From: Acidimicrobiaceae bacterium
GTDB lineage: Bacteria; Actinomycetota; Acidimicrobiia; Acidimicrobiales; RAAP-2
Reading direction: 5' to 3'
Assembly: GCA_003132205.1 (NCBI GenBank)
Contig: PKWY01000033.1
Span: forward strand, 90,373 to 154,372
DNA length: 64,000 nt
Both the position numbers and the translations under genes were made by a program. Each line of letters opens with the position of its first letter. The stretch's first letter is position 1. The notes beneath the pieces are model-generated. The model did no database searches. It was not told the DNA's origin and worked only from the letters and a program-made list of their open reading frames with translations. Of the stretch, positions 6,549 to 61,412 are shown one piece after another.

Positions 6549-6671
6549 ACCCGCCTTCGAGCTCAAGACCAGGGCGTCTCAAGCGTTTGCGCGACGATAG
6601 CCGTCTTGACTCTTGGGACTAGGAGTTCATGCACATGCATGTCGTTCGCGACGACTTTGGTTTGAACAACC

Positions 6672-11458: not shown

Positions 11459-11551
11459 GACAAGATCCCCCTCATCGAAATGAACTTGGCGAAAGTGTAC
11501 GAACACCAACGCGCCCTGTACAGTGACTAATTGATACAAATTGAAAGGTTG

Positions 11552-11571
11552 ATTTAGACAAATGTCTAAAT
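11552..11571. promoter_or_regulatory. Perfect inverted repeat ATTTAGACA-AA-TGTCTAAAT in the divergent permease/PucR promoter
   Basis: 9-bp arms with a 2-bp spacer in the 131-bp gap between the divergent starts. Confidence 0.6.
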
Positions 11572-11589
11572 TCGCCCGTCTGGGGGAAC

Positions 11590-13170: not shown

Positions 13171-13330
13171 TCATAGCCTTACGTGCGGTGTAGAACCGCG
13201 CGCCATCAGGTCCGTAGACGTGCAGGTCGCCGAAGACTGGACGGTTCCAACCCCCGAGGGGGTAGTGGACGCCGGCCCTTGGCGTCGCTCCAGCGGGTGA
13301 TGCGATTCACGAGTGGCCCGTTGGCTCAGT

Positions 13331-14641: not shown

Positions 14642-14840
14642 ATTGATCTTCCCTTTCTAGGCAGTTGATGCAGACGGGCCGAGCGCAGCCGCAGCGCCCG
14701 CGAGACGTCTCGGCGCCCGTTCGTGAACCGGAGAGTTCCCTCGATCCATCGAAACGCATTCGCACGACCACCCTCCACGTCACACTCACTGCGCACGGCC
14801 AAGGCGCCCCTCTACGTCAGGACAGGTTGCGGCTTCCCCT

Positions 14841-16211: not shown

Positions 16212-16239
16212 ATCAATTCTCCGATCAAATCTTGAACTA

Positions 16240-17730: not shown

Positions 17731-17736
17731 GCCGCA

Positions 17737-17787
17737 ACATTACGTACCAATACTTGACCAGTCAAGTCACTTATTGTATTGTTACAA
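17737..17787. promoter_or_regulatory. Back-to-back sigma70-type promoters sharing a palindromic -35 region (ACTTGACCAGTCAAGT, 17752-17767)
   Basis: + strand TTGACC-17-TATTGT ending 6 nt before ATG 17789; - strand TTGACT-18-TAATGT ending 6 nt before ATG 17730; extra IR TTGTA-N4-TACAA at 17774-17787. Confidence 0.65.
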
Positions 17788-17788
17788 A

Positions 17789-19132: not shown

Positions 19133-19240
19133 GTCACCTAGCGAAACGAGAAAGTGCTTCGCCGTGGTCTCTACGGCAAGGCACCTTCCAAGTTCGATGA
19201 GCCGGTAGTCCGGGGCGACGCCCCGGACTACCGGCTACGC

Positions 19241-41153: not shown

Positions 41154-42203
41154 TCACTTCTCGGATTCCGAAATCGACAACGTGGTAAGTCGTCGGCGAT
41201 GAATCAGCATCTGGGCTCTGTCGATCAATACGGCGAACAAGAGAAGCACTCCGGTGATGATGAGTTGCCAGTACGTCGCCGTAATCCCGATGAGATTCAG
41301 CCCCTTATCAATCGTGAAGAAGAAGATTATTGCGATTGCTGTTCCAAAGGGCCCACCCGACCCTCCGACGAGCGCCGTTCCACCGAGCAGCACCGCCGCG
41401 GCCACAGTGAGCTCGTCGCCACCAAGGGCCGTTGGATCCACCGAGTTTGAATTGAATCCGATGAGCAATACCGAAGCAATGCCAGCGCACAGCCCCGAGA
41501 TCGCGTAGACGGCGACGGTCACACGCTCTACCGCGATTCCCGATAGGCGCGCCGCGTGTGAGTTCCCTCCCACCGCGTAGATGTCCCGACCAAAATACGT
41601 CTTGTGGAGCACGAGACTGAGAACCACCAGTACGGCCAACATCAAGAGTGAGATGTACGTGAAGGGTCCGAGTTGAGCGTAGAAGAACGATCCAAAGGTC
41701 GTCGTCGTCAGTACGAGGGTGCTGTCATTCAAGATAAGACGCGCCAACCCCTCGTAGGCCACCAGCCCGGCGAGCGTGACGATGAAGGCGTTGAGACGAA
41801 GTCGCGCGATAAGCAACCCATTGACGGTTCCCACCACGAGGCCCACGACCAGGCAGGCGAAAATCCCGACCACGACTCCGAAGTGAACCGTCATCTCACC
41901 ACCACAGACCGCCGCGAGGACCGCCGTCGAGGAGACCGAGAGATCGATGCCCCCCGAGATAATGGTGAGCGTCATGCCCATGCCCAGCAGGAAGTCAATC
42001 GAGGCACTGCTCAGGATGCTGTTGACGTTGGTCTCATCTAGAAAACCCGAAAATTTGACGCGGAAAGTTACGACAGCCGCGACAAAAACCACCAGGACCG
42101 CTGCGAACTTGGGCACCTTTCGCAGATGCCCCCAACGGTCCGCCGGGCTCAGCACCGTGTCCCTCGCTCCACTTTCCACCACTTCATGTTCCGTTATTGT
42201 CAT
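41154..42203 (-). CDS. Sugar-type ABC transporter permease (RbsC-like)
   Basis: GGIDLSVS, G.VNGLLIA, YAVGGN..AARLSGI and AAVLLGGT motifs. Confidence 0.92.
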   Translation of the reverse strand: MTITEHEVVESGARDTVLSPADRWGHLRKVPKFAAVLVVFVAAVVTFRVKFSGFLDETNVNSILSSASIDFLLGMGMTLTIISGGIDLSVSSTAVLAAVCGGEMTVHFGVVVGIFACLVVGLVVGTVNGLLIARLRLNAFIVTLAGLVAYEGLARLILNDSTLVLTTTTFGSFFYAQLGPFTYISLLMLAVLVVLSLVLHKTYFGRDIYAVGGNSHAARLSGIAVERVTVAVYAISGLCAGIASVLLIGFNSNSVDPTALGGDELTVAAAVLLGGTALVGGSGGPFGTAIAIIFFFTIDKGLNLIGITATYWQLIITGVLLLFAVLIDRAQMLIHRRRLTTLSISESEK

Positions 42204-43771
42204 GACTTCCTTTCAGAAATTGCGACCGACATAATCTGCTCCTCGGTGGCGCCTCGATCAAAGACCCCCACAATCCGTCCCGCCCTCATCACCGCTATCC
42301 GGTCGCAAAGTCGCAGCAACTCCGGCAGTTCGGATGAGGCGACGATGATGGACATTCCCTCGTCGGCGCACGCCTCAAGAATTGAGTAGATCTCTGCTTT
42401 CGCCGCCACGTCGATTCCACGCGTCGGCTCATCCAAAAGCAGTACGCGAGGCCTTCGCCTCAGCCATTTCGCGAGAATCACCTTCTGCTGCTGTCCACCA
42501 GAAAGCGACGACATCGGGGCATGCAGTGGCGTTCGGGGCAGACCCAGCCGCGCCATCCAGGCGAGGGCCTCTTCACTCTCGCGTCGGCGTGAACGCCAGA
42601 ACTTCAGGCCCCGCTTGGTCATGAACATGTTCTCGAGCACCGTCATTCCGATGACCGCCCCCTTCTCGCGGCGACTGTCGGGGACAAGGGCGAGCCCAGC
42701 TCGCATCGCCTCTCGAGGCGATGGCGCTTGCAGTGCGACGTCCGCCATTTCGATCACGCCGCTTGACTGCGGATTGAAACCAAAGATGGATTCGAGAAGT
42801 TCGGTCCGCCCCGCGCCCATGAGGCCCGCCATGCCCAGAATCTCACCCCGGTGAACCTCGAGCGATGCCCCCTTGACGAAGCCATCCTTGGTGAAGACGT
42901 TGGTGATGCGAAGGGCCGACTTCTGATGGCTCTCATCGTTCAAGGAGATCGAACGAGGATGAATCTTCGCGAGTTCACGTCCGACCATGCGACTCACCAT
43001 CCACTCCTCATCAATTCCTTTCGCCGCGCTGGTCTCAATATGAACACCGTCGCGCAAGATAGTGATGGTGTGGGCGAGTTCCAGAATCTCGGCGGTTCGG
43101 TGAGAAGTGAAGGCCACCGCCAAGCCCTCGCTGGCGAGTTGCTGTACCAGCTTGATCAGCGTTCGCACGTCATCGGATTCGAGTGACGCCGTTGGCTCGT
43201 CAAGTAAGAGCAGTCGCGGGCGAAACGACAACACCCTCGCGATCTCGACCAGCTGCTGCTGGCTTACCGAGAGGTCACGCACCGGCAGGGAGACATTGAC
43301 ATCAAGACCCACGTAGTCGAGTGCCCGGATCGCCCGGCTCACCAGGTCCGGCCAGCGCAAGACTCCATTTCGAGATGCAACGCGCGAACCGAGCAGGACG
43401 TTCTCAGCGACACTCAACTCGGGAATCAGACTCAACTCCTGGCTCACTATCGCAACACCGCGCATTCGGGCGTGACGAACAGAGACGTGGTGCTCGGCGA
43501 TGCCATCAATCAGGATCTCGCCGCTGTCAGGCCTCAGCATCCCGCTGAGACAGTTGAAGAATGTCGACTTGCCAGATCCATTTTCGCCAACTAGAGCGTG
43601 AATCTCTCCAGCCCTGAACGAGACCGAGACGTCGTTAAGCGCCGTCACCGGACCGAAGAACTTGGAAATGCTCCTCGCCTCGACGATGAGCGGGCCATGC
43701 TCCGCTTCTCCGAGCATGCTCGGTGACACCTGCTCGGTGACCCCACGACTTCCCACTAAATGACCCCCCAT
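42200..43771 (-). CDS. Sugar-type ABC transporter ATP-binding protein (RbsA-like; start may be a few codons downstream)
   Basis: GENGSGKS, LDEPT, LSGGQQQKV, DEPTRGID. Confidence 0.93.
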   Translation of the reverse strand: MGGHLVGSRGVTEQVSPSMLGEAEHGPLIVEARSISKFFGPVTALNDVSVSFRAGEIHALVGENGSGKSTFFNCLSGMLRPDSGEILIDGIAEHHVSVRHARMRGVAIVSQELSLIPELSVAENVLLGSRVASRNGVLRWPDLVSRAIRALDYVGLDVNVSLPVRDLSVSQQQLVEIARVLSFRPRLLLLDEPTASLESDDVRTLIKLVQQLASEGLAVAFTSHRTAEILELAHTITILRDGVHIETSAAKGIDEEWMVSRMVGRELAKIHPRSISLNDESHQKSALRITNVFTKDGFVKGASLEVHRGEILGMAGLMGAGRTELLESIFGFNPQSSGVIEMADVALQAPSPREAMRAGLALVPDSRREKGAVIGMTVLENMFMTKRGLKFWRSRRRESEEALAWMARLGLPRTPLHAPMSSLSGGQQQKVILAKWLRRRPRVLLLDEPTRGIDVAAKAEIYSILEACADEGMSIIVASSELPELLRLCDRIAVMRAGRIVGVFDRGATEEQIMSVAISERKS

Positions 43772-44254: not shown

Positions 44255-45007
44255 TTATGAGCCTGCCAAGAGCGCTCCGGCGCGCGGGACCACCGTTTCA
44301 AGGCCGAGCACTTTGAGCGTCTTCCACACCGTCGCGACAGAAGCGGAGAGAACAGGTATGTCAAATTGGTCCTGAACGATCTGGATCGCTGGTAGCGACG
44401 GCATCTGCACGCACGCGCTCAACACCAAGGCATCCACGCCTTTGGTGTCAATCTTGTGGGCGAGCTCGGTGAGATTGGCGGGATCGAGTCGGCCAACGGC
44501 GAGATTGTCGGCGACACCGAGACTTATCGTGTCGTGCACTTCAATGCCCTCAGTACGGATGTAGTCGCATACCATCTCAGTCAAGGCCGGCACATATGGG
44601 GTGATAACCGAGATCTTCTTCGCGCCAAGATGGTGCAAGGCCTCAACGAGGGCTCCGGCCGACGAGATGACGGGGACATTAAGGTTCGCCGAAGCCTTCG
44701 CTGCGGCGCGGAGTTTTTCCTCCGACTTGCGGTGGTAGCCCTGTCCCTGAGCCATGATGGCAATCAGACACGCGTAGGCCATCACATCCACATCGGCATC
44801 GGCCAGTTCTACCGCGCATCGTTCGGAATCGCAGTCCATCGCCCGTAATTCCTCCGGCGTGACGTGCTTCATCCGCATTCGACTGGAATGGAACGTAAAG
44901 CGCTCCGGACGGGTCGTCTCTCGCAGGTGAAGCATGGCGGGAATCTCCGTCTCCATTGTCGTATTGGAGCTCGGCACGATCAGGCCAACGCGTATGGCGG
45001 TCATCAA
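44255..45007 (-). CDS. maiA: Maleate cis-trans isomerase (Asp/Glu racemase family)
   Basis: GLIVPSSNTTMETEIP, FHSSRMRM, YACL.AIMA and LSACVQMPSL (two catalytic Cys). Confidence 0.93.
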   Translation of the reverse strand: MMTAIRVGLIVPSSNTTMETEIPAMLHLRETTRPERFTFHSSRMRMKHVTPEELRAMDCDSERCAVELADADVDVMAYACLIAIMAQGQGYHRKSEEKLRAAAKASANLNVPVISSAGALVEALHHLGAKKISVITPYVPALTEMVCDYIRTEGIEVHDTISLGVADNLAVGRLDPANLTELAHKIDTKGVDALVLSACVQMPSLPAIQIVQDQFDIPVLSASVATVWKTLKVLGLETVVPRAGALLAGS

Positions 45008-45023: not shown

Positions 45024-45854
45024 TCACCCGCCAGTGAAGGCGGGCTCGTAAAGCAGGTTGTAGGTAGCCAGCGCCGGCATGGACGCGGTGTCGCTGCGTT
45101 CCCACCGCAGCACGGCGGGACGAGGAATGCGACCCTGTGCGTCGCTCTCGAGATTGATCCCGATGCCGCGAAGCGTCAATAGCAGCGGGTCAAAACAGTG
45201 GTCCGGATTGAGATCAAGTATCAGCCCCAGCGCCGCGTCAATGAGGTGGAATTCAAGCACCTGATGCACCAATGCGCCATCACGTTGGCGAATCGCGTTG
45301 AGGAGCAGTTTGTCCGCGTAAAGAAAATCTTCGGGAACGCGGGGGCGCGAGAGGTACGCCCGTTGGTGGCGGTAGATCTTCGCGTGCAACGAGTGCGTCA
45401 GCTCTGCAATGGCGCTTGGGTAGTGATCCAACGCGACATCATGAAAACGCCTGTGCGCCTCTTGAAACTCACGGGTTCGATCGGTGTAGCGACTCATCGC
45501 ATCGAGAGCTTCGAGCATCTGAGCAATGTCCTGGTCGGTGATCCGGTCAAGCAGGGCCGTCAGCGTCGGGGGCTCCACCAGGAGTCGAAGCGCGTAAAAC
45601 TGCTCGGTGTCGCTGTTATTCAACGAGGAGACGTGCATGCCACGGTTCGCGCTGATGTTCAGCAGTCCGTCGCGTTCCAACCTTTGAAAAGCCTCACGTA
45701 GCGGCGTCCGACTCACCTGCAGCTCTCTCGCCAGATGCTCTTGTGATAACCGCTGTCCGGGCGCGAAGGATCCGTCGATGATGCGTTCACGCAGCACCAG
45801 ATAGATCTCGTCGACCATGGTGCCTGAGCGACTGCGGCGAACTTCTTCGGTCAC
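45024..45854 (-). CDS. GntR (FadR/FCD) family regulator with a C-terminal extension
   Basis: GQRLSQEHLARELQVSRTPLREAF..LE HTH plus FCD domain. Confidence 0.92.
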   Translation of the reverse strand: MTEEVRRSRSGTMVDEIYLVLRERIIDGSFAPGQRLSQEHLARELQVSRTPLREAFQRLERDGLLNISANRGMHVSSLNNSDTEQFYALRLLVEPPTLTALLDRITDQDIAQMLEALDAMSRYTDRTREFQEAHRRFHDVALDHYPSAIAELTHSLHAKIYRHQRAYLSRPRVPEDFLYADKLLLNAIRQRDGALVHQVLEFHLIDAALGLILDLNPDHCFDPLLLTLRGIGINLESDAQGRIPRPAVLRWERSDTASMPALATYNLLYEPAFTGG

Positions 45855-46132
45855 GAAGGCTCCTCGTACGAACCAAGGTTTCGGGCAAAGAGTTCGTTGA
45901 ATTTTTCCGGCGTGAGGGTCGAAATAACTTCGAGTTGCATCGCGTCCAGCAGAACGCGGTGCCCGAACTTCGGCGTGGCGAGCTCGAGCCTCTCGCCGTT
46001 GCGGGTGATCACCTTTCGAACCTTCACTCCGGTGAACTCATTCGCGATTCCAAAACTCCCCTCTTCTCCGATGATGCCGTCATCGGCCTCGTCGGAGAAG
46101 CCCTGCTCGTCCCCGCTGATCGTGTTACTCAC
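45851..46132 (-). CDS. Conserved small hypothetical protein of actinobacterial dioxygenase clusters (93 aa, GTG start)
   Basis: ANEF..V.VRKV.TRNG.RLE...P..G..V.LDA..LE pattern; GGAGG RBS; overlaps both neighbouring genes. Confidence 0.72.
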   Translation of the reverse strand: MSNTISGDEQGFSDEADDGIIGEEGSFGIANEFTGVKVRKVITRNGERLELATPKFGHRVLLDAMQLEVISTLTPEKFNELFARNLGSYEEPS

Positions 46133-47018
46133 TTTTCTCGACCTCCCAGTCATTGGCGACCGCATAGTCTGTGACAACGGCACCGTACGCATCGGGACGC
46201 ACACCACGCAGCACCGGCAGCTGCTCACGAACTCGGTCAATGGTATCGATATTAAGTTCGACCACCTGGTACGCCTCCAGAGCCTCGCCCAGGTCCACCA
46301 CTACCTCGCCCCACGGGCCGATGACACTCGCGTGCCCGTACGTGGGAAAGGCGTCGTCTTCGGCCCCGCCGATGGTGGCCGACGCAACGATATACACCGC
46401 ATTCTCGATAGCTCGGGCGCGTAGCAGTACCTCCCAATGCGCGCGTCCGGACGTTCGGGTGAACGCCGCGGGAACAAGAATGACTTCCGCGCCGGCCAAC
46501 GCGAGGCGTCGATACAGTTCGGGAAAGCGCACGTCGTAACAAATCGTGACTCCCACGCGCGTCCCGGCAATATCAAGCACAACGGGCCCCCCACCTGCTT
46601 GCTCAACCGACGACGCCTCGAACGACTGCCCGTCGATTCGGGCATCGAACAGGTGAATCTTGTCGTAGCCACCGACCAGGCGGCCCGTCGGATCGAAGAT
46701 CAGCGCTCGGTTTCGGGGCCGTTCATCCTCGTCGACAATGAACTTCGCTCCACCCAGCACCACGGTTACCCGATTCTCTGCGGCGGCCTTGGACAAACGG
46801 GTCAACGCGGGACTGTCGATCCGGAATGCTTCGGCTCTCATCTCGGTGTTGCTGCCGAGCATGAGGCAATTCTCGGGCAAGAGAACGAGCTCGGCGCCCT
46901 CGGCCGCCGCGCGAGCGACAAGGCGACACGCTGTCTCGACGTTGCGTTCGATGTCCCGAGTCGCGTGGAACTGTGTCAGTCCCACGCGAAGGACACGCTT
47001 GGGCTCCGGATGCTTCAT
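46125..47018 (-). CDS. Nitrilase-superfamily carbon-nitrogen hydrolase (Nit1/Nit2 omega-amidase-like; start corrected to 47018)
   Basis: Glu-Lys-Cys triad LLPEN / YDKIHLFD / ICYDVRFPE; ATGA overlap with the upstream dioxygenase gene. Confidence 0.92.
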   Translation of the reverse strand: MKHPEPKRVLRVGLTQFHATRDIERNVETACRLVARAAAEGAELVLLPENCLMLGSNTEMRAEAFRIDSPALTRLSKAAAENRVTVVLGGAKFIVDEDERPRNRALIFDPTGRLVGGYDKIHLFDARIDGQSFEASSVEQAGGGPVVLDIAGTRVGVTICYDVRFPELYRRLALAGAEVILVPAAFTRTSGRAHWEVLLRARAIENAVYIVASATIGGAEDDAFPTYGHASVIGPWGEVVVDLGEALEAYQVVELNIDTIDRVREQLPVLRGVRPDAYGAVVTDYAVANDWEVEKSE

Positions 47019-48130
47019 ACCGGCAGCTGCGCAGTCTGGTCGATTCGCAGGTTCACGACAGTCCAACCGCCGCCCGATGCCACCATTGGCTCGTAGGCGT
47101 AAACATCGGCGCACGCCCCCGGGCCCACCAGACCGAGCATGATTATCCAGTTCAGGAATTCGTACTGGCCATGGCTCAGCAGTGCGAAGGGTTCCAGTTT
47201 CGCCAAATCCAACCCGTGTCCGACCTGCAGCAGTTCCAGAATGTGCGTGTCAAACTCAATGTCGACCTTGCCGAAGACGCCTGGATCCAACCAGTGCGAT
47301 AGGCCGCCGGTCGCGAGGACCCCGACCCGTTGATTCGAAGCCTCGACCACCGATCGCAGTTGCTCGCCGAACGCCCGGGCGTTCCATGGGGAGAAGCTTC
47401 GCGCCGGCTGGGTGATGATGGGGATGACGGGCACATTCACGTCGGACAGGAGTTGGCGCAGCGGCACGATGAGCCCGTGATCCAGTTGGACCTCGGGGGC
47501 GTCTTCCACCTCGAGGCCGGCGTCGCGAACCGCTTGAACAATGGACGACGCCAACCCTGGGGAGCCCTCAACCGTCAGATTCAGATCCGGTCGGCCGAAA
47601 AATGCCATCGAGCCCGTATGGCTTGCCCCCGTTCCCACGACGAATGCTCCCGTCTTGAAGCTTTGGAAGTGGCAGTCCGCGGTAACGAGCAACACATCGG
47701 GCGCGGCGGCGCGAAGCGCCTCGGCCAGCTTCTGATAACCCTGGGTGAGTCGACCAACCGAGTCGGCGGGATCGATTTCGGGCCGGGCCAGGAGATCGGG
47801 CACGTGAGAGCACCCACCGGCGAAGACGAGATTCGCCGGAACTTCTGATTGTTCGATCTCGAGTGAGCTCACGTGGAAACCACCGGCGCTGCCCGAATCG
47901 GCAAGGTCCCCTCGGAACCACCTGCTGACCAAAATAGTGATGCCGTCATTGACCCCAGCACTTCGCAGTCGGTCGCGGTCTCCTGCGGCAATAACCAGCG
48001 CCCACTCCGGATCGAGCCCGAGTTCCTCGCCAACGGCAATTGGATCAACTTGAAACTGCTTCAGTACATCGGGGCGCCGGCCAAGTTCCAGGATGGCGTT
48101 TTCGAGTCTCGACAGCAAGTCCGCCGTCAT
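47015..48130 (-). CDS. Class III (LigAB-type) extradiol dioxygenase with an N-terminal LigA-like domain
   Basis: SHVP, DCH, DHG and GGLSHW LigB motifs, preceded by an ~80-aa F..DP......GL...GD...L...G segment. Confidence 0.8.
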   Translation of the reverse strand: MTADLLSRLENAILELGRRPDVLKQFQVDPIAVGEELGLDPEWALVIAAGDRDRLRSAGVNDGITILVSRWFRGDLADSGSAGGFHVSSLEIEQSEVPANLVFAGGCSHVPDLLARPEIDPADSVGRLTQGYQKLAEALRAAAPDVLLVTADCHFQSFKTGAFVVGTGASHTGSMAFFGRPDLNLTVEGSPGLASSIVQAVRDAGLEVEDAPEVQLDHGLIVPLRQLLSDVNVPVIPIITQPARSFSPWNARAFGEQLRSVVEASNQRVGVLATGGLSHWLDPGVFGKVDIEFDTHILELLQVGHGLDLAKLEPFALLSHGQYEFLNWIIMLGLVGPGACADVYAYEPMVASGGGWTVVNLRIDQTAQLPV

Positions 48131-49137
48131 GCAGTCACCAACTTTCCGGTATCAACGACGATGTGGCCGTCGATCTGGACTGTGCAGTCCCTCATCGGCA
48201 CGTCCAAGTGGGCGGGCGTATCGCGGTTCGCGAAACGGTTGCTGCCCGTTGACCACATGAAGCTTCCCGGAGCGGAACGCAGCTCCTGCCCGTAGAGCGT
48301 CCGCGCGTCGTAGACATCGAATGCCGCCCAGCTCGCAATCGGGTGAAGGCCCCATCCCATGTGCGAGATCGCCCACACTTCTGGATCGTTCCATGACTCA
48401 AAGTAATCGCGCAGGAGGAAGGCATCAGCCCCGCCCTTGACGTCGACGATGAACCCGTCCTCAACGGTGAAGACGACTTCGTCGCGGACATAGCGCTGCC
48501 ACGGGATGAGCGCGTCGCCGGGCTGGAGCACAATGGTTCCTTGCGTCGTGCGATCATTTGGGAAGCACGCGACGAATCCACTGGGCCAGTGATCCCAGCG
48601 GCCGGGCTCATCAACATAACCCCACTGGTGCGTGATCGGAAGGCTCTCTCCGGCGATATCCGCGCTGAGATCGGTGCCTACCGGACTGGTCACCCGCAGG
48701 GTTGTCCCGGCCTTCAATAGTTGGCCACCGGCCAATACGCTCTGGCGTAGTTCGTCATTTCCCATGAGTCGATCAAGGACGTTGGCCGGTTCGGCGACGA
48801 AAAGCATCCGCTTCCCATTGCCGGTGATTCTGGTGCGCACCGTGGAATGGATCAGGCCGCCCACGGTGACGTCGATCACCATGTCGCACTCCGCGGCGCC
48901 GGCGAGTAGCGCCGCAATCCCCCGATCGTCGGATTGGTGGGGCGGCAGCATGGGATGCGAGAGGCTGGGGGCGGTCAGTATGATCACACCGGCACCGATT
49001 TCTTGGGCCGCCGAGACCGCCGCGTCCACGTAATTCCCCTTCTGCCCCTGTTCGCTGATGACCGCGACGGTCTCGTCAGCGGTCAGCTTGCACAGTCGAT
49101 ACTGCTTGATGAAGAGTTGGTGCAGGCTACTGGTCAT
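48127..49137 (-). CDS. nicX: 2,5-dihydroxypyridine 5,6-dioxygenase family protein
   Basis: GRWDHWPSG, SHMGWG and HLDVP (His/His/Asp Fe ligands) motifs characteristic of NicX. Confidence 0.85.
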   Translation of the reverse strand: MTSSLHQLFIKQYRLCKLTADETVAVISEQGQKGNYVDAAVSAAQEIGAGVIILTAPSLSHPMLPPHQSDDRGIAALLAGAAECDMVIDVTVGGLIHSTVRTRITGNGKRMLFVAEPANVLDRLMGNDELRQSVLAGGQLLKAGTTLRVTSPVGTDLSADIAGESLPITHQWGYVDEPGRWDHWPSGFVACFPNDRTTQGTIVLQPGDALIPWQRYVRDEVVFTVEDGFIVDVKGGADAFLLRDYFESWNDPEVWAISHMGWGLHPIASWAAFDVYDARTLYGQELRSAPGSFMWSTGSNRFANRDTPAHLDVPMRDCTVQIDGHIVVDTGKLVTA

Positions 49138-49155: not shown

Positions 49156-49935
49156 TTAAAGAGTGGATCGGACGGCGCCGCCGTCAATATTGATGGCGGT
49201 ACCGGTTGAGAATGATGAGACGGGCGAGGCGAGGAAGGCCACGGTGTCGGCAATCTCCGACGCTTCGGCCCATCGACCAAGCGGAATGTCACGGACCGTT
49301 GCCGCACGTTCCTCATCCTCCGTCGTCGCGTGCTGTACCGACTTGGCCCGCATGATGTCGCGCATTCGGTCGGTGCCGGTCGCGCCCGGCATCACCTGAT
49401 TCACCCGCACCCCGAACGGGGCCAGTTCGAGGGCCAGTTGTTTTGCCAGCGCCGAAACTCCAGAGCGCATTGTCGCCGACAGCACGCCGCCAACTGCGGG
49501 CTGCTTTACCCAGGTGGAAGTCAGAAAGACGATGCTCCCCGATCCCTGCAGGCACATCTGCTGCGCGGCGCGGCGCGACAGTTGTACCGCCGGACGAAGC
49601 AGGGCGGCATACGCCGCTTCCCAGTCCTCGTCAGTCGTTTCGAGTGCGGGCAATATGCGCGGCCCCGGCGTGTTGCTCACGAGGATATCCAACCGGCCAT
49701 GCTCGGCGATGACCCGCTCGACGAGAACAGTGCCCGAACGGTCAAGGGTCAGGTCAGCTGCCTGCTTGGTGACGCCGCTGCCAATTCTTTCGATGGCGTC
49801 GTCAAGGGACGGACCCTCGCGCGAACTGATGACCACCTTCGCGCCTTCGCGAGCGAAGCGTTCCGCAACCGCGAAACCGATTCCCTTGCTCGCCGCGGTG
49901 ACGAGCACCACCTTGTCATCCAGACGCAGGTCCAC
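49156..49935 (-). CDS. SDR family oxidoreductase (GTG start at 49935)
   Basis: TAASKGIG, SNTPGP, LSATMR (atypical, no YxxxK), RVNQVMPG. Confidence 0.88.
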   Translation of the reverse strand: MDLRLDDKVVLVTAASKGIGFAVAERFAREGAKVVISSREGPSLDDAIERIGSGVTKQAADLTLDRSGTVLVERVIAEHGRLDILVSNTPGPRILPALETTDEDWEAAYAALLRPAVQLSRRAAQQMCLQGSGSIVFLTSTWVKQPAVGGVLSATMRSGVSALAKQLALELAPFGVRVNQVMPGATGTDRMRDIMRAKSVQHATTEDEERAATVRDIPLGRWAEASEIADTVAFLASPVSSFSTGTAINIDGGAVRSTL

Positions 49936-49936: not shown

Positions 49937-50131
49937 TCAGCCCTCGATCCCGATGGCGTTTTCGGCACAGCCCGCGGCGGCATTGCGGGCGGAGTCCTCG
50001 TCACCGGCCGCAACGACGCCGCCATTCAACAGTTGGGCGAAGCCAAACTCGTCAATAACGAAGAGCGATGGGCAGATGTCCGCGCACGCTCCGTAGCCCG
50101 AACACTTGATCGGGTCTAGAAAGACTTTCAT
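49937..50131 (-). CDS. Single-cluster ferredoxin, probably [3Fe-4S]
   Basis: CSGYGAC..CP...C pattern (second Cys position is Tyr); 64 aa; AAGGAG RBS. Confidence 0.88.
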   Translation of the reverse strand: MKVFLDPIKCSGYGACADICPSLFVIDEFGFAQLLNGGVVAAGDEDSARNAAAGCAENAIGIEG

Positions 50132-50141
50132 TACTTCTCCT

Positions 50142-51359
50142 TTAGTTGACGGCAATCGGTTGCGTTGCCCGATCCGATGTGATTATTCTTGAGAAAGTGC
50201 CGGCGAGATTCGCCGCACCGTCGAGAAACGCGCATGCGCCGCGCCCCTGTAGCGCGGTTCCCCAACGAGCCAAGTTCGCCAGGGCATCGGGCTCAGCGCT
50301 GCCTTGACTGAACAGTTCGAGTGTGTCGGCGATGGCCGCGGTTCCCTTCACGCAGACTCCGCACTGCTGAGCGGACTCTTCGACGTACCAGCGGGCCAAC
50401 CGAGCGACCACATCTTCTATCCGCTCGTCGCAGCCGAGCACGGTCACGGCCCCGCAGCCGATGCCCGAGCCCGCAGCGCGCATGGCGTCATAGCACCACG
50501 TCGCCTCGAGCAGCGACGCATCGGCCACTCCCATGAACCACCCACCGGCGAGCACGCCACCTATCCCATTGCTCAATCCTCCGGCGCAGTCCTCGATCAG
50601 ATGTCCCAGCGTGAGTCCGTAGGGCACTTCGTAGACTCCAGGGCGCCGACAGGATCCGCCCAGGGTGACCAGCATTGTTCCGGGTGAGGCACTCGTCCCA
50701 AGTTCGCGGTACGTATCTGCACCGTTCCGCCCGATCCATGCGGCTTGGACCAGGGTCTCGACATTGGAGACGAGAGTCGGTCGTCCGTCGACGCCGGACT
50801 CGAAGGGGCGTGGCGGCTTGGACAGCGGCAGCGCGAGGCCACCGTTGATGGAGCGGCACACCGCGGTCTCCTCACCAGCGACGTACCGGTGTTCAACCAC
50901 GTGAATCTCGACAGCGACGCTGCCCGGTCTTGGCGGCAGCTCCTCCAGAGCCCGTTGCACCGACGACACAGTCTCTGGATGCGAAAGATAGATCACGGCC
51001 CGATCCGCACCGACGACGGCCGCCGCCAGTAGAAGACCGTCAATCACCGCGTGCGGACGGTTGGTCAGCAGCCACCGATCCTTGAAAGACGACGGCTCAC
51101 CCTCCTCGCCGTTGGCCACGACAACACGAGGGGCGCCACCATCACGGACTGCACGCCACTTGCGGTGCGCCGGAAAACCCGATCCACCCCGCCCGCGCAG
51201 TCCCGCCTGTTCGAGTTGGTCGATCAGTCCGCCGGTGACGACCGGCGCGTAGGTTCCGGCCGCGATCTCCTCTTGCAAGCTCAGCGGGCGCGAGCCGGAC
51301 TCGCCGATCACGAACCGGGGCGTCAGGCCCGGGTAGACGTCGGCAAAATGCTCTGTCAT
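50142..51359 (-). CDS. Stand-alone NuoF/Nqo1-like FMN/NADH-binding protein
   Basis: GLRGRGGSGFP..KW, NGEEGEP..FKD, YVAGEETA, NVETL and ESAQQCGVC...GACAF; no other nuo genes nearby. Confidence 0.88.
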   Translation of the reverse strand: MTEHFADVYPGLTPRFVIGESGSRPLSLQEEIAAGTYAPVVTGGLIDQLEQAGLRGRGGSGFPAHRKWRAVRDGGAPRVVVANGEEGEPSSFKDRWLLTNRPHAVIDGLLLAAAVVGADRAVIYLSHPETVSSVQRALEELPPRPGSVAVEIHVVEHRYVAGEETAVCRSINGGLALPLSKPPRPFESGVDGRPTLVSNVETLVQAAWIGRNGADTYRELGTSASPGTMLVTLGGSCRRPGVYEVPYGLTLGHLIEDCAGGLSNGIGGVLAGGWFMGVADASLLEATWCYDAMRAAGSGIGCGAVTVLGCDERIEDVVARLARWYVEESAQQCGVCVKGTAAIADTLELFSQGSAEPDALANLARWGTALQGRGACAFLDGAANLAGTFSRIITSDRATQPIAVN

Positions 51360-52021
51360 GCGCGCGCCTCAACTTCGGCGCTCGCCTCGTCAAACAATGC
51401 CAGGGCTCGGTCGAAGGTGACCACGTCGGCATACTTCGCATTCATGTCGAAGAGATTTGCCTCGTGGGGACCCTGGTGCCGGTCACCGACGCATGATTCG
51501 GGCACCAACGTCGGATAGCCAGCAGTACAGGCGTCGACCACGGTCGCGCGGATGCAGCCAGACGTCGTCGCCCCGGTGATCACGAGAGTGTCGACACGCA
51601 GGGTGGCCAGCAGGCTGGCGAGTCCCGTGCCGGCGAAAGCCGAGGCGGCCCGCTTCACGATCAGTGGCTCCGAGTCCAGACGCCCCAGGCGCGGATCAAT
51701 CGCCACCGCCGGGCTGCCTTCGCTCATGCACCGAAGCCCCGGCATCTTCGCGAGCCAGACGTGACCCTCAAGAGCGTCAGCCGCGAAGGCGATGGTCGTG
51801 AAGATGACCGGATGACCACTGGCGCGGGCTCGCCTCACCAACTCGGCCGTTCGTTCGACCACGTTATCGAGATCGCAGCCCGGTGCCCAGGCATCATCGG
51901 TGAATCCCACCGCCAGGTCAACCACGAGCAGCGCGGGCCGGTGTCCGACGCTAAGTCGGCCACCAATGCCTTTGCTGACGTAGCCTTCGCGCGCATCGTT
52001 GAACCAGGCGGGACTGCTCAC
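51356..52021 (-). CDS. nicF: Isochorismatase-family amidohydrolase, maleamate amidohydrolase-like
   Basis: PALLVVD, K.AASAF.GT, GATTSGCIRAT.VDA and HEANLFDM.AKY; clustered with nicX and maiA. Confidence 0.8.
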   Translation of the reverse strand: MSSPAWFNDAREGYVSKGIGGRLSVGHRPALLVVDLAVGFTDDAWAPGCDLDNVVERTAELVRRARASGHPVIFTTIAFAADALEGHVWLAKMPGLRCMSEGSPAVAIDPRLGRLDSEPLIVKRAASAFAGTGLASLLATLRVDTLVITGATTSGCIRATVVDACTAGYPTLVPESCVGDRHQGPHEANLFDMNAKYADVVTFDRALALFDEASAEVEARA

Positions 52022-52827
52022 GGTGTCCGCCTCGCGGGAGCGATGCCGCGAACGAGCAAACCCGAATCAACGGGAATCACGGTGCCGGTCATTGCAGCTG
52101 ACCCTTCCGCTGAACCGAGCAGCGCGTAGACCGCGCCGTAGTCGCTCAACTCCGGGATGCTGCCGAGAGGGAGGGCATCTTCGGTGCCCGGTAGCACCGC
52201 ATCTTTGGGCGTCTGGCCGAGCGAAGTAAGACCGGCCATCACCGTTGCGGCCACGCCGGGCGCCACCGCATTGATCCGAATATCGGGAGCGAGTTCGTAG
52301 GCGAGTTGACGCACGACGCCCACGACCGCATGCTTGGCCGCGGTATAGAGCACGCCGCCGCCGCCCGGTTGGAACGAAGCGAACGAGGCGGTGAGCACAA
52401 TTCGACCACGTGATGCTCGAAGGTGGGGCAGCGCCGCCTTGATGCCGAGCAGTGTCGAGCCGACGTTGACGCGGAAACTCTCATCGATGGCTGCTTCGAG
52501 CTGCGCTGGATCGATCTCGGCGAGCGAGACGGCTTGGTCGTAGATACCCACGCAGGACACCAACACGTCAAGTGAACCGAATTCGGAAATCACCCGCTCA
52601 ACGAGCCGCTGGTTGGCCGTCCACGTGGACACGTCCGAGCACACCCCTACCAGCTGACCCCCGGCAATGAAATCCGGAAACTCCTGGCTCAAGGCATCGA
52701 CTCGCTCGTTCGACCGATCCGCCGCGACAACGCGAGCTCCCTCTTCGAGGTATCGCCGCACCACCGCCTTGCCGATGCCGCCCGCTCCTCCGAGGACCAA
52801 GCAGGACTGCTCTTTCAACACACCCAT
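52018..52827 (-). CDS. cis-dihydrodiol dehydrogenase (BphB/HcaB-like SDR)
   Basis: GGAGGIG, YTAAKHAVVG.VRQLAYELAP.IR.NAVAPG; directly downstream of the Rieske alpha subunit. Confidence 0.88.
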   Translation of the reverse strand: MGVLKEQSCLVLGGAGGIGKAVVRRYLEEGARVVAADRSNERVDALSQEFPDFIAGGQLVGVCSDVSTWTANQRLVERVISEFGSLDVLVSCVGIYDQAVSLAEIDPAQLEAAIDESFRVNVGSTLLGIKAALPHLRASRGRIVLTASFASFQPGGGGVLYTAAKHAVVGVVRQLAYELAPDIRINAVAPGVAATVMAGLTSLGQTPKDAVLPGTEDALPLGSIPELSDYGAVYALLGSAEGSAAMTGTVIPVDSGLLVRGIAPARRTP

Positions 52828-52837: not shown

Positions 52838-54223
52838 TCAATCCTCGTCGAACGTGAGCGCGGGCCACTGACCTGGTTCGGCCTTCATCATGCCAAGGTA
52901 GAACTTGAACAGGTTCCGTTGAACACCCTCCTCGTAGCGAGTCCAAAATGCCTTTCCCGGCCCGGCCCAATCATCTACAGGATGACCAATTCCGATGCCC
53001 GGCATCCCCATTTGATAGTTGAGTTTGAAGTCCAGAACCTCAGCGGCGGTTGAACGCCCGGTTCTAGCAACGGTGATCCATGGTTCGGTGTCGTCCATCT
53101 CGAAAGAGCCGCCCATCGAGAAGGTTCCCAGTCCCGCCCGGTAGCTGCGTTGCTTTTCCTCTTCGGTCATGTTCTTGTAGGCGCAGAACCAGTTCCAGAT
53201 CTCGACCTTTCCTTCGCTGACGGGCTGCCACGTGCGTATCGTCAACACCGCGGTCGGCGGAAAGTTGGCGCCATCTTCGGTCATTGGCAATGCGAGGATG
53301 GAGAAGTTCGGAAAGACGTTTCCGACGAACACGCGCGAACGTCGCGCCACATTGAGCTGATCCTCGCTAATCCTTTCACTGGTGAACGTCTCGGCAACTC
53401 GCTCGGGGTAGCCGAAGAACTTCGGCCCGGGTTCATCGTCGTTCGGGGCCATCGAGAAGGACAACGAGTGTCCCGGTGATGCTTGGATGTGGTATCCCAT
53501 CATGTTGTCCTGGAATGACACCGGGAACGCGCCAATCTCCCACACTGACTTGTGCAGCGTTCCCAGGTGGTAGTCATCACCCGAAAAGTTGTCAGCCCCG
53601 GACTTCCAGTTCGCATCAATAACAAACCGCTGAGGTGCCCCGAGCACCTCGACGCCGTGCTCGTTGAGACCGAAGACCAGGTCCAGATACCAGCCCATGC
53701 CGCCGAGGTAGTCATCGAGCGACGGGGCCGTCGGGTCCAGCGTCGCGAAGATCAGACCGTGCTTGCTCCCCACCTTCGCGGCGCCGGCGAGTCCGTTACT
53801 GGACTTGTCCATGCCGCCAAAGGCGTTCTTCCACAGCGGCGCGCCGATTAGGTTGCCCTTCGTGTCGTAGGTCCAGCCGTGGTACGGACAGCGAAAGTGC
53901 GACGTATTGCCCGAGTCAGCGCGACAGATCTGGACGCCACGGTGTCGACACGCGTCAAAGAGAACGTTGATTTCACCCTGTTCGTCACGTACGACGACGA
54001 AGTTGTCCTCGCCGACCTTTCGCAGGACGTAGTCGCCCTTGGCCGGAATCTCGGATTCGTGCGCCAAGAAGACCCAGCAGCGTCCGAAGACGTTGCGCTT
54101 TTCGCGTTCGTAGATTTCCTTGCTGCCGTAGAGCGACGCCGGCAGCTCACCGACGGGTAGGCCGGCTTCGAGTTGGTCCAGAATTCGCTCTGAGTTGTCA
54201 GTACGGTTGGTAAAGTTCGTCAT
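52838..54223 (-). CDS. Rieske ring-hydroxylating dioxygenase alpha subunit
   Basis: CRHRG...CPYHGW Rieske site; NWK...NF.GDDYH...LH mononuclear Fe site; DDTEPW. Confidence 0.95.
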   Translation of the reverse strand: MTNFTNRTDNSERILDQLEAGLPVGELPASLYGSKEIYEREKRNVFGRCWVFLAHESEIPAKGDYVLRKVGEDNFVVVRDEQGEINVLFDACRHRGVQICRADSGNTSHFRCPYHGWTYDTKGNLIGAPLWKNAFGGMDKSSNGLAGAAKVGSKHGLIFATLDPTAPSLDDYLGGMGWYLDLVFGLNEHGVEVLGAPQRFVIDANWKSGADNFSGDDYHLGTLHKSVWEIGAFPVSFQDNMMGYHIQASPGHSLSFSMAPNDDEPGPKFFGYPERVAETFTSERISEDQLNVARRSRVFVGNVFPNFSILALPMTEDGANFPPTAVLTIRTWQPVSEGKVEIWNWFCAYKNMTEEEKQRSYRAGLGTFSMGGSFEMDDTEPWITVARTGRSTAAEVLDFKLNYQMGMPGIGIGHPVDDWAGPGKAFWTRYEEGVQRNLFKFYLGMMKAEPGQWPALTFDED

Positions 54224-54962: not shown

Positions 54963-55988
54963 CTACAAGTGGCTCTTCTCGGTCGCGGTCAGTTTGCCAA
55001 AGTTCTTCGCGTTGTACTGGGCGAACGGACCAATGATGGTGGTCTTGGCCGAGGACTCGTTGTTGATGGCGTCCCATGAGAGCGTGCCCAGATTGGTGCC
55101 GGCCGCGCTGTAGGCACTGAAGTCCCAACTGGCGCTTATCTCACCGCTCTTGATCGCAGCGACACCAGGAACGTCAAGTTCCGAGCCGAGGATGATTACT
55201 TTGCCCTTTCGTCCAGCAGCTTTCACGGCCGACGCGGCGCCAATGGCGGACGGATCGTTGTAGCAAATGAAACCTGCCAACTTTGGATAACGAGCAAGCG
55301 CGGCTGAGGCCGGGGCGACAGCGCCCGCAATATTATCGGTGGGGTTATTCACACGCTCGACAACTTTGATCGTGGGGAACTGTTTGGCCACCTGCATTGT
55401 CAGCGCATAGTCCTGATCCAACGCCGCCACTGGCTGGCCGTAGCCAATGTACGCAACTTGGCCCTTGCCCCCTCGGAGATGCGCCTTCAGATACAGGAAA
55501 CGCTGTTTGATAAATGCCTTGTTCGCGTGGGCATCCAGGTACTGACCGGTGAAGGGAGCTGACGGCGCAGTGCCACTCGCTGTCGTTGCCACCGCGTCAT
55601 AACCAATGACTGGGATACCAGCGCTCGCAGCCTGCGTCAAGACAGTGGTGTCAGTTTGTGAATCCAGGGGCCAAATGATTATTGCGCTGACCTTCTCAGT
55701 AATGAAGGTCTGGATGTTCGAAATCTCGGTTGTCGTACTGTAATCAGCCTGCAGCGTCACAACCTTGCAACCTTGCTTGGCCAAGTACGCCGAGGCGCCA
55801 GCTTCCGAATTGGCCAGATAGGTGTTGCCCGCAGTCGGATCAGAGAAACCCACCGTACAACTCGTGGCCGCTTTCGGCGTCGACGAGGCAGCTGAGATAG
55901 ATGCCCAACCAGCGCACGATATAAGCATTAAAGCTCCAGCGGCGAGCACTTTGATTGCTCCTGGAGTACGGACGGTTACACGATTCAT
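54963..55988 (-). CDS. Sugar-type ABC substrate-binding protein (start probably 55988)
   Basis: Signal peptide with possible LISC lipobox; I.TFIT..VSAIIIWP, ND..AIGA..A; PBP type I pattern. Confidence 0.88.
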   Translation of the reverse strand: MNRVTVRTPGAIKVLAAGALMLISCAGWASISAASSTPKAATSCTVGFSDPTAGNTYLANSEAGASAYLAKQGCKVVTLQADYSTTTEISNIQTFITEKVSAIIIWPLDSQTDTTVLTQAASAGIPVIGYDAVATTASGTAPSAPFTGQYLDAHANKAFIKQRFLYLKAHLRGGKGQVAYIGYGQPVAALDQDYALTMQVAKQFPTIKVVERVNNPTDNIAGAVAPASAALARYPKLAGFICYNDPSAIGAASAVKAAGRKGKVIILGSELDVPGVAAIKSGEISASWDFSAYSAAGTNLGTLSWDAINNESSAKTTIIGPFAQYNAKNFGKLTATEKSHL

Positions 55989-56065
55989 GCCAATCCTTTC
56001 GTCAGCCACTACGCAGCGACTGTTTATGGTGAAAACAGATTTCTACTATCTACTATTTAGAACAC

Positions 56066-56841: not shown

Positions 56842-58719
56842 CTACCTCTGGTTGTACTTCACCCGACGCGACTGGCCATTTGCCAGGGTGATGGTGAACG
56901 TGAAGACACCATTTGGTGATCCGGGCTTCACCGTGACCCTCAAGGAAAGCAACGTGCCGCTATCGCGCGTGACCAATGCGGTCGTACCGCGATGGCTGGC
57001 CACGGACGGTCGACCGTAAAAGCCAGCGCCGACGACGGTCAGCGTCGCCGACCTCCCGGCGACGGCGTAACCAACGACGTGAATCGGACCAGGGGCAGCG
57101 AAGGAAGGGGGCGGAGCAGGGTTGGTCACTTCCAGCCTGTAGGTGAACGTCCCTGCATCACCGTGCGCGTCACTCGTGTTGCCCCTCGCGACGTACGTAC
57201 CAAACGCCAACGTGGCGCCCGGCGTGACGAGGCCACTGGCGGAGACCGCGAGGTTCGCGGTACCCGACGTTTGCGCGAACGTGACTGCCCCGTCGTTGTG
57301 GCTCACACTGAGCTGGTCGGTGAAGGCGGACAGCGCCGTTGTCACCACTGAGTTCGAGGTCGGCGCATTCTGGGTGATCGCGCCAACGACCAGAGCGAAC
57401 GCGAACGTCCCGATGTCGCCGTTGGGGTCGCTCGTCGTGCCCGACGCCGTGTAGGCGCCAACCGCGAGCGCACCGCTCGTGGTGACAAGACCGGTTGAAT
57501 TGACGGTTAGCGCCGGGGCGCCCGTTGTCTGAACGTAGGCGACCGCGCCATTGTTGCCGCTCACCACCAACTGGTCGGTGAACGTCGATGAATTCGGCGC
57601 CTTCACCGAACTCGAAACCGGCGAAGCCTGATTAATCGTGCCCACCGTCAAAGTGAAGACGAACGTCCCGATGTTGCCGTTGGTGTCCGAGGTTGTGCCC
57701 GTCGCGGTGTAGGAACCAGCCGCGAGGGTACCGCTCGTCGCGACAAGACCGGTTGAATTGACCGTCAGCGCCGGGGCGCCCGTTGTCTGGACGTAGGTGA
57801 CCGCGCCGTCGTTCCCGCTCACCACCAACTGGTCGGTGAACGTCGATGATCCAGCCGCCGTCACCGATGCAGCGGCAGGTGTGCTCAGCAGGCCGCAGAC
57901 GTAATCGCCGTCGAGCCCGTTCGAGGGGTATTGAATCATGGCCACTCGCCCGCCGGTGAATGACGGCGACGTGCAAGCGACTTGCGCCGACGACAACGTC
58001 GCGTATCCGGGCACCCACACCGGCACCGCCGGAAACGTGGAGTCCGTTCCTCCCGTGATCGTGTGCCACTGCGACGGCGTCGAATACGTCCCGATCGAGG
58101 TCACGCCGATGTTCGACAACGAGGCGATCGATCCCTCCAACATCTGCTGGTCGTTCGCTTTCGACGACGCCGTTTGTCCGTAGCCCGGCTCCAGGGTCTC
58201 CCACGTGTTGCCAGTTTCTACGTCGAGCCACCAGTGCGCGACCCTCGCCGAGGACGCCGCTGACAATGAACCGTCCGCCGTCTCGGCGTTCACGGCGTTA
58301 CTGAACGAGATTCGTGCCGTGTTCCATCCGAAGTCGTAGGAACACGCGGGCGAGTTCGCTCCGTGACAGATCCGAGGGCTCTGTTGATTGGTGGGCCAGT
58401 TCGACGAATACGACGGTCCGGGGTTCCCGGTGTTCATGTAGAACGCCGGCGCGCCACTCACCGTGGTCTCGGCCCAACGAAGCTCGCCTGACAAGCAGGG
58501 GTTCGCCGAGAACGGGTGACCGTCATTGACGCCCACGATGCCAAAACCTGTCGAGGTCGGCAGGGAAGCACCGCACTGCGGATAACTGACGTCATAACCA
58601 GTCAACGCAGACACCGCTGGCCCGGCACCGGCGGCGAAAGCAGTCGAGCCGAGAAGCCCCGACGCGATCAAGACGGCGGCGAACAAGCCCTTGGTTAGTT
58701 GATTGAACACGTCCTTCAA
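56842..58719 (-). CDS. Secreted modular protein: GH25/DUF1906-like N domain, three Ig/cadherin-like repeats and a beta-rich C domain
   Basis: Signal peptide (AFA cleavage site); GYDVSYPQC...WWLDVE...GTYST..W...PVW; three 86-aa repeats. Confidence 0.8.
   Translation of the reverse strand: MKDVFNQLTKGLFAAVLIASGLLGSTAFAAGAGPAVSALTGYDVSYPQCGASLPTSTGFGIVGVNDGHPFSANPCLSGELRWAETTVSGAPAFYMNTGNPGPSYSSNWPTNQQSPRICHGANSPACSYDFGWNTARISFSNAVNAETADGSLSAASSARVAHWWLDVETGNTWETLEPGYGQTASSKANDQQMLEGSIASLSNIGVTSIGTYSTPSQWHTITGGTDSTFPAVPVWVPGYATLSSAQVACTSPSFTGGRVAMIQYPSNGLDGDYVCGLLSTPAAASVTAAGSSTFTDQLVVSGNDGAVTYVQTTGAPALTVNSTGLVATSGTLAAGSYTATGTTSDTNGNIGTFVFTLTVGTINQASPVSSSVKAPNSSTFTDQLVVSGNNGAVAYVQTTGAPALTVNSTGLVTTSGALAVGAYTASGTTSDPNGDIGTFAFALVVGAITQNAPTSNSVVTTALSAFTDQLSVSHNDGAVTFAQTSGTANLAVSASGLVTPGATLAFGTYVARGNTSDAHGDAGTFTYRLEVTNPAPPPSFAAPGPIHVVGYAVAGRSATLTVVGAGFYGRPSVASHRGTTALVTRDSGTLLSLRVTVKPGSPNGVFTFTITLANGQSRRVKYNQR
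57124..57885 (-). repeat. Three in-frame 258-bp tandem repeats
   Basis: CTGGTCGGTGAA recurs at 57313, 57571 and 57829 (spacing exactly 258 bp); units 1 and 2 are near-identical at the DNA level over long stretches. Confidence 0.93.
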
Positions 58720-61186: not shown

Positions 61187-61412
61187 AGCGAATCATGGAG
61201 GACGCTCCGATGGCCTTCTAAGGAGAATCGCCTACTTCGCGTCGAGGTCCGAGAGTTCGGTTGTGAGAGACACCGGAACGTCCTCGTTTCTCCGCAATTG
61301 CGTGACCTTGGCTGAGTTCGCAACGACGAGGTTAGGCTCGACTCCAAGTATGACCATGTTGGAACAAACCAGTAGTCCTGTTGAACCGACCTCGTCAGAA
61401 GGTCGGATATCA

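Follow-up and report, generated by a model that had tools for sequence, protein, structure and literature searches.

Rieske-type ring-hydroxylating oxygenases (RHOs) have been classified by their electron-transfer components, and in the scheme of Kweon et al. 2008 the reductases are only of the glutathione-reductase (GR) type or of the ferredoxin-NADP reductase (FNR) types FNR_C and FNR_N (PMC2358900). Type V of this scheme has a GR-type reductase and a ferredoxin with a [3Fe-4S] cluster, the phthalate dioxygenases and the Rhodococcus NidA-type polycyclic aromatic hydrocarbon dioxygenases are placed in the [3Fe-4S]-ferredoxin-dependent class, and none of the five published classes contains a NuoF-like reductase (PMC2358900). 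Here we describe a stretch of 64,000 nucleotides from an Acidimicrobiaceae bacterium (hereafter the window; C20:90373-154372 of the source genome, with all coordinates given as window positions unless a contig or locus is named), whose minus strand carries, from ~56.0 to 41.2 kb, one densely packed catabolic operon with the two subunits of a Rieske dioxygenase, a NuoF-like flavoprotein and a small ferredoxin. In common with the type V systems PhdABCD of Nocardioides KP7 and PhtAaAbAcAd and NidAB of Mycobacterium vanbaalenii, the operon encodes an alpha/beta oxygenase and a Cx5CxnC ferredoxin. However, the reductase slot, filled in those systems by a GR-type FAD reductase, is occupied here by a protein of the NuoF fold, which is expected to carry FMN and an Fe-S cluster.

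We consider it probable, from gene content and comparative genomics, that electrons flow in this system from NADH through the FMN- and Fe-S-containing NuoF-like flavoprotein and the [3Fe-4S]-type ferredoxin to the Rieske centre, as the original prediction had proposed from the operon itself. In this scheme, the NuoF-like protein would bind FMN, oxidize NAD(P)H and release single electrons through its C-terminal Fe-S cluster, for which three conserved cysteines would serve as ligands; this cluster would be either [3Fe-4S] or [4Fe-4S] with an unusual fourth ligand. The [3Fe-4S]-type ferredoxin of 64 aa, whose gene lies 10 nt further downstream, would accept these electrons and hand them on to the Rieske centre of the alpha/beta ring-hydroxylating dioxygenase from the same operon, so that the pair would stand in for the GR-type reductase of the classical type V systems. 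Which cofactors the pair carries, in which direction electrons flow and which partners it serves are inferred, and reading the NuoF-like protein as a reductase is supported by its obligate pairing with the ferredoxin, the synteny of the cluster across 29 species, the missing classical reductases and the recurrence of the pair in unrelated RHO operons.

The 405-aa protein is a stand-alone, diverged NuoF homologue and not part of complex I. Its Pfam matches are Complex1_51K (PF01512, 125 bits) and NADH_4Fe-4S (51.9 bits), with an SLBB (ubiquitin-like) match of 23.8 bits just under the cut-off, and its AlphaFold2 model (pLDDT 92.5) matches complex I 51-kDa and Bfu-type NuoF-like subunits over the full length in Foldseek (template modelling (TM) score 0.85-0.90). 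With NuoF/Nqo1/NDUFV1 and the relatives HoxF, FdsB, HydB and NfnB it shares the three-domain fold (TM about 0.9), the FMN/NADH motifs and the position of the Fe-S cluster. Unlike NuoF, it stands apart from other nuo genes and lacks partners of the NuoE or NuoG type (Pfam found neither among the operon genes), the first cysteine of the N3 cluster is replaced by Ala or Ser throughout its subfamily, and a mini-ferredoxin follows downstream. The loss of the first N3 cysteine (ESAQQCGVC...GAC) had been noted in the original prediction and is borne out by the translation of this region (WYVEESAQQCGVCVKG...GRGACAFLDG) and by the phmmer alignment to Thermus thermophilus Nqo1 (2FUG), in which Cys353 of Nqo1 is matched by Ala330, and its Cys356, Cys359 and Cys400 by Cys333, Cys336 and Cys376. 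Exactly the first N3 cysteine is missing, and the FMN/NADH motifs GRGGSGFP, NGEEGEP, GEET and NVET align to Nqo1 intact. The protein therefore belongs to the NuoF superfamily and departs from NuoF proper in its N3 motif, in its lack of a nuo context and in its equivalog score (236 bits against NCBIfam nuoF_fam, TIGR01959, with a cut-off of 558).

The altered motif is a property of the whole family. Of a set of 121 homologues (51-91% identity), 114 have Ala and 7 have Ser at the position of the first N3 cysteine, and a set of 80 loci from species-representative genomes has Ala or Ser there throughout; the remaining three cysteines are invariant in both sets. Because the replacement extends through all of these sequences, it is not a private mutation of this genome. 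Across the homologues there is little or no variation in the motifs GRGG(A/S)GFP, NGEEGEP, GEET and NVET, which are likewise kept in the 80 loci. A maximum-likelihood tree groups the first-Cys-less proteins in one clade (support 100/99), to which neither the canonical NuoF of the source genome (contig C5, motif ESCGQCTPC) nor the FdsB-like paralogue of that genome belongs, and the RHO-linked proteins including that of the window (group A) are monophyletic within the same tree (100/98). Group A has an additional invariant cysteine, Cys302 (29/29), which might act as a substitute cluster ligand in this RHO-linked clade. As a universal fourth ligand, Cys302 is ruled out by its absence from 7 of the 51 proteins of a second, mycobacterial group (group B), which have Asn or Ala instead, and from a paralogue on contig C55 of the source genome, which has Ala.

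The paralogue on C55 (~76850-78460; L095 ~8880-10460) is a second first-Cys-less NuoF-like gene, with the motif ESARQCGPC...GRGAC. It too is followed by a mini-ferredoxin gene (CDGFGHC...DEWGY...GCP), and upstream of this pair lie an ApbE flavin-transferase gene and a two-component system, a context unlike that of the Rieske cluster.

The partner encoded in the window is a ferredoxin of 64 aa (MKVFLDPIKCSGYGACADICP...GCAENAI, also given as MKVFLDPIKCSGYGAC...GCAENAI), whose likeliest start is the ATG at 50131, preceded at a distance of 6 nt by an AGGAG ribosome-binding site in the 10-nt gap after the NuoF-like gene; a TTG at 50155 is less likely. It is predicted to be a single-cluster [3Fe-4S]-type ferredoxin, with the motif C10-x2-Y-x2-C16...C54, in which Tyr stands where a cysteine is missing, and a DEFGF box. 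The nearest solved structure is that of a Rhodopseudomonas palustris ferredoxin (4ID8), and the Mycobacterium tuberculosis ferredoxin fused to CYP143 (8AMQ) also matches. Several mycobacterial ferredoxins with CXX?XXC motifs have been purified, and all of those examined were isolated with a [3Fe-4S] cluster (Child et al. 2018, PMC6237146).

That a stand-alone NuoF-like reading frame directly precedes a CxxYxxC..C ferredoxin, as first read from the window alone, agrees with the Pfam domains and the short gap, and the arrangement is general. In 79 of the 80 genome loci the mini-ferredoxin gene lies directly downstream of the NuoF-like gene, commonly with an ATGA overlap, and the motif of the paired ferredoxin is CxxYxxC in group A, with Phe or occasionally His or Tyr at the central position in group B. 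We define the subfamily by the motif ES[AST]xQCGxC...GAC together with a CxxXxxC mini-ferredoxin encoded immediately downstream, and both features are present in the window pair.

The whole Rieske cluster is conserved in the same order in 29 of the 80 loci (group A), which come from 29 species of Actinomycetota and Pseudomonadota: beta subunit, alpha subunit, in some cases a short-chain dehydrogenase/reductase (SDR), isochorismatase, NuoF-like protein, ferredoxin, SDR, NicX, LigB and CN-hydrolase. The carriers in Actinomycetota are Acidimicrobiia, Streptomyces, Amycolatopsis, Actinomadura, Thermomonospora, Pseudonocardia, Mycobacterium, Rhodococcus, Gordonia, Janibacter and Geodermatophilus, and the cluster is also found in Sphingomonas, two Alcaligenaceae and, from a contig look-up, Paraburkholderia. 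Cultivable carriers of the syntenic cluster include Amycolatopsis orientalis DSM 43388, Streptomyces hyderabadensis JCM 17657 and Rhodococcus koreensis. Among 400 genomes of the phylum there was no other orthologue, the sole other match being a different RHO with 46% identity, which makes the cluster too rare for co-occurrence statistics, and 3 of 41 genomes of a Rhodococcus-type genus carry the NuoF-like protein.

The operon had been said to contain no GR- or FNR-type reductase, and the profile scans agree: none of its genes has a Pyr_redox_2 or NAD_binding_1 domain, and none of the matches to these domains in the genome falls inside the window. The same holds for most of the conserved clusters. 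Using the GR-type and FNR-type proteins of the genome itself as probes over 10 kb on either side of the 29 loci, we found a GR-type protein at one locus (L027, Sphingomonas echinoides), an FNR-type protein at one other (L014) and no other NAD(P)H-dependent donor in 27. The genome survey for adjacent NuoF-like, ferredoxin and RHO genes in the absence of a GR-type reductase, which had been suggested as a check, thus yields 29 loci with a GR-type protein near only one of them. Across 80 metagenome loci fetched with the alpha subunit as query, neither GR-type nor FNR-type reductases were found.

The pair recurs in other oxygenase contexts. Two unrelated RHO operons, whose alpha subunits have 45-47% identity to that of the window, carry the same pair. 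In one of them (L146:9510-13150) the genes for the beta subunit, the alpha subunit, the NuoF-like protein and the ferredoxin are contiguous, the textbook layout of a four-component dioxygenase, and in the other (L139:3466-11394) a single operon comprises beta, alpha, an uncharacterised gene, an aldehyde dehydrogenase gene, the pair and an SDR gene. Group B is a large Mycobacterium clade (n=51 proteins) in which the pair occurs together with neither an alpha/beta RHO nor LigB or NicX. At L093 of Mycobacterium terramassiliense (5913-19195) and 50 similar loci, it is flanked on one side by two Amidohydro_2 genes, a gene for a 137-aa Rieske protein and a hydrolase gene, and on the other by a DUF35/thiolase-like fusion, two HIBADH-like genes and two P450-ferredoxin pairs. 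In a Solirubrobacterales relative, the neighbours of the pair are a small Rieske protein and a weak match to DUF455.

These contexts bear on a different role for the pair, in which it would repair or activate the LigB-type and NicX-type dioxygenases of the operon by re-reducing their Fe(III), as XylT-type ferredoxins do for catechol 2,3-dioxygenases. Two extradiol-type Fe(II) enzymes are indeed encoded directly downstream in the same operon, and sister clusters do without the pair (see below). However, at L146 the pair comes right after the beta and alpha genes and tblastn with the LigB and NicX proteins of the window found no relative in the locus, at L139 tblastn gave no LigB match and any NicX match lies below threshold, and the Mycobacterium clade of the pair has neither protein. 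Moreover, the known reactivating ferredoxins are plant-type [2Fe-2S] proteins without a dedicated reductase. We therefore regard a repair function as quite improbable.

The mycobacterial loci correspond to Mmar_4724-4737 of Mycobacterium marinum, the Fdx6 locus. In the supplement of Child et al. 2018, Mmar_4729 and Fdx6 (Mmar_4730) form the same subfamily pairing and match group B (PMC6237146). This locus differs from the window in its catabolic context, in having no alpha/beta RHO and in its ferredoxin, which is 97-103 aa long with Phe in place of Tyr. The NuoF-like gene beside Fdx6 was listed in that study without a function, and only Fdx3 was reported to have a co-located reductase (PMC6237146). 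The latter, FdR1 (Mmar_2931, 466 aa), the partner of the CXXYXXC ferredoxin Fdx3, was considered as a candidate NuoF-like precedent, but is unlike the NuoF-like family (about 400-433 aa) in size. Presumably, FdR1 is of the FprA/AdR type. In the literature covered, to which the paper on the HpoBCDF system discussed below does not belong, nothing links a NuoF-type protein as reductase to a Rieske oxygenase or a P450.

Clusters orthologous to that of the window but lacking the pair were sought in the reverse direction, with the alpha subunit as query in the 80 metagenome loci, counting orthologous clusters with enough flanking sequence. The pair is present in 12 of these clusters, both genes are absent from 9, and in one (L134) the ferredoxin occurs alone, located between two SDR genes and without a NuoF-like gene. 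Contig look-ups added two more pair-less clusters (L096 and L097). No classical reductase was found in place of the pair in these orthologous loci. This pattern (pair present, absent or reduced to the ferredoxin) is that of a removable cassette, and it fits electron-transfer components and not a unique step of the pathway.

Clusters that have the pair mostly also have the isochorismatase and maleate-isomerase-like genes, and those without it mostly lack them, which suggests, from gene content, 'self-contained' (complete) and 'minimal' versions of the cluster. The complete version, with the isochorismatase, NuoF-like, ferredoxin and maleate-isomerase-like genes, is seen at L098-L104, L106, L107, L113, L116 and L122, and the minimal version, without those genes, at L096, L097, L105, L109-L111, L117, L118, L120, L123 and L152, with L096 keeping the isochorismatase. 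The clusters at L096 and L008 end in a fusion protein of Old Yellow Enzyme (OYE) and Pyr_redox_2 domains.

Co-variation of this kind would also be expected if the isochorismatase-like protein, the NuoF-like protein and the ferredoxin formed one unit for a distinct redox step, such as a reductive or hydrolytic-redox change of an N-heterocyclic intermediate, instead of supplying the RHO. The three genes are mostly gained and lost together, and the stop codon of the isochorismatase gene overlaps the start codon of the NuoF-like gene (ATGA). However, the association is broken in both directions, with the pair but no isochorismatase at L102 and the reverse at L096, and the pair occurs without any isochorismatase at L139, at L146 and in the whole Mycobacterium clade. 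The maleate-isomerase-like gene co-varies as well, suggesting 'complete' and 'minimal' lineages rather than a three-protein unit, for which we see even less room than for a repair system.

Several points weigh against a supply of the Rieske dioxygenase by the pair. To our knowledge, all characterised NuoF-type proteins act with a NuoE-like partner, which the operon does not encode. At least nine orthologous clusters do without the pair, so that it is dispensable when another supply exists, and its association with the cluster could partly reflect cluster lineage and not function. In addition, the genome encodes two orphan GR-type ferredoxin reductases (Pyr_redox_2 plus Reductase_C) elsewhere, at C49 ~28200-29450 and C10 ~59900-61400, and the electron-transfer genes of RHOs are often unlinked and shared between oxygenases (PMC2358900). 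The last two points, together with the solitary ferredoxin at L134, are also what speaks for the main rival explanation, in which an unlinked GR-type reductase would reduce the operon ferredoxin for the Rieske dioxygenase, and the NuoF-like protein would have another job with the ferredoxin, as a ferredoxin:NAD+ oxidoreductase, a redox balancer or a partner of another enzyme. The surroundings of the two orphan reductases are of a housekeeping kind (exonuclease VII, a metallo-beta-lactamase fold protein, an FGGY kinase), and no oxygenase or ferredoxin gene was seen adjoining them. Supply in trans is further opposed by the near-constant adjacency of the NuoF-like and ferredoxin genes, which are often translationally coupled, by the want of another nearby donor at nearly all RHO-linked loci where the NuoF-like gene is present, and by the cluster itself, in which no other enzyme obviously needs a low-potential one-electron donor. 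We consider this explanation unlikely, although less so than the repair system or the three-protein unit.

Beyond the window, first-Cys-less NuoF-like proteins and their DE(W/F)G(Y/F) mini-ferredoxins have, in our estimate, an even chance of representing a widespread, unrecognised class of NAD(P)H:ferredoxin oxidoreductases, which would have three-Cys, probably [3Fe-4S], clusters in both proteins and would form a portable supply for oxygenases in Actinomycetota and some Pseudomonadota. The oxygenases served may include alpha/beta Rieske enzymes of three independent lineages and the small-Rieske or P450 clusters of mycobacteria.

The remaining genes of the operon (Table 1) point to an N-heteroaromatic compound as the substrate of the pathway, on account of the NicX-, NicF- and maleate-isomerase-like genes, the nitrilase-family amidase and the LigB-type dioxygenase, and of a xanthine-dehydrogenase-type molybdenum hydroxylase gene that lies divergent to the minimal cluster at L097. 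The nearest solved structures to the alpha subunit are the Rhodococcus naphthalene dioxygenase 2B1X (E 1e-117) and the phthalate 3,4-dioxygenase 9JP5. Since phthalate dioxygenases of this sort belong to the [3Fe-4S]-ferredoxin-dependent class (PMC2358900), the oxygenase is of a type that matches the operon ferredoxin, and both fit type V. The NicX-like reading frame (48127-49137) had no Pfam or NCBIfam match in profile scans whose model set possibly did not include PF26233. A single nucleotide separates the ferredoxin stop codon from the GTG start of the second SDR gene. The minimal cluster at L117 (12311-16952) carries, inserted between the two SDR genes, a VOC/glyoxalase-type dioxygenase along with an ABC importer of the Peripla_BP_4 type found in the window; because the same transporter type lies inside that operon, the sugar-type transporter family of the window is suggested to import the pathway substrate. 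Upstream of the operon, a 625-aa reading frame at 56842-58719 on the minus strand has no Pfam match.

A pyridine-degrading system offers a further comparison. HpoBCDF of Rhodococcus rhodochrous PY11 is reportedly a four-component 2-hydroxypyridine dioxygenase (Vaitekunas et al. 2016). It is said to be an alpha/beta RHO of an actinobacterium whose target is a pyridine ring, and an SDR dehydrogenase and a nitrilase-family amidase reportedly come after it, which is also the case in the window cluster. The ring is reportedly opened by the cyclase-family protein HpoH and, unlike the window, the pathway is not known to have NicX or LigB. If the reductase of HpoBCDF were NuoF-like, the window system would be a further member of a known system.

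Table 1. Genes of the Rieske dioxygenase operon and the associated importer in the window, in order of transcription.
Feature	Position	Strand	Basis
Peripla_BP_4 solute-binding protein of the associated ABC importer	54963..56009	-	Pfam
Rieske dioxygenase beta subunit, 171 aa	54238..54753	-	Pfam Ring_hydroxyl_B (PF00866)
Rieske dioxygenase alpha subunit, 461 aa, proposed terminal electron acceptor	52838..54223	-	Pfam Rieske (PF00355) and Ring_hydroxyl_A (PF00848)
SDR resembling cis-dihydrodiol dehydrogenases (HcaB/BphB-like)	52018..52827	-	Pfam adh_short; NCBIfam PRK06200 and BphB_TodD below cut-off
Isochorismatase-family hydrolase (candidate NicF-like amidase)	51356..52021	-	Pfam Isochorismatase
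Stand-alone NuoF-like flavoprotein, 405 aa, proposed NADH:ferredoxin oxidoreductase	50142..51359	-	Pfam, alignment, AlphaFold2, Foldseek
Mini-ferredoxin, 64 aa, [3Fe-4S]-type, proposed shuttle to the Rieske centre	49937..50131	-	Pfam Fer4_15 and Fer4_13
Second SDR, GTG start	49156..49935	-	Pfam
NicX-like protein (candidate 2,5-dihydroxypyridine dioxygenase family)	48127..49137	-	Syntenic homologues carry PF26233 NicX
LigB-type extradiol dioxygenase	47015..48130	-	Pfam LigB
Nitrilase-superfamily amidase (Nit/omega-amidase-like)	46125..47114	-	Pfam CN_hydrolase; NCBIfam matches below cut-off
GntR/FCD regulator	45024..45854	-	Pfam
Amdase/Asp-Glu-racemase family protein (maleate isomerase-like)	44255..45007	-	Pfam
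ABC importer ATPase	42200-43771	-	Pfam
ABC importer permease	41154-42203	-	Pfam

Biocatalysis and pathway reconstruction with Rieske oxygenases and P450s are held back by the difficulty of finding matching redox partners, and many actinobacterial oxygenases have no identified reductase. If NuoF-fold proteins with FMN and Fe-S centres are the dedicated reductases of the abundant three-Cys mini-ferredoxins, a new, sixth class would join the classification of RHO electron transfer, and three- or four-gene cassettes would be ready for testing. Hundreds of genes annotated as 'NADH-ubiquinone oxidoreductase-F Fe-S binding region domain-containing protein', including that of the mycobacterial Fdx6 locus, would also gain a role, and the window system may exemplify a wider reductase/ferredoxin module that has not been described. 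An NADH-input module of complex I that does without both NuoE and NuoG and has an altered N3 cluster would, moreover, bear on how this module evolved.

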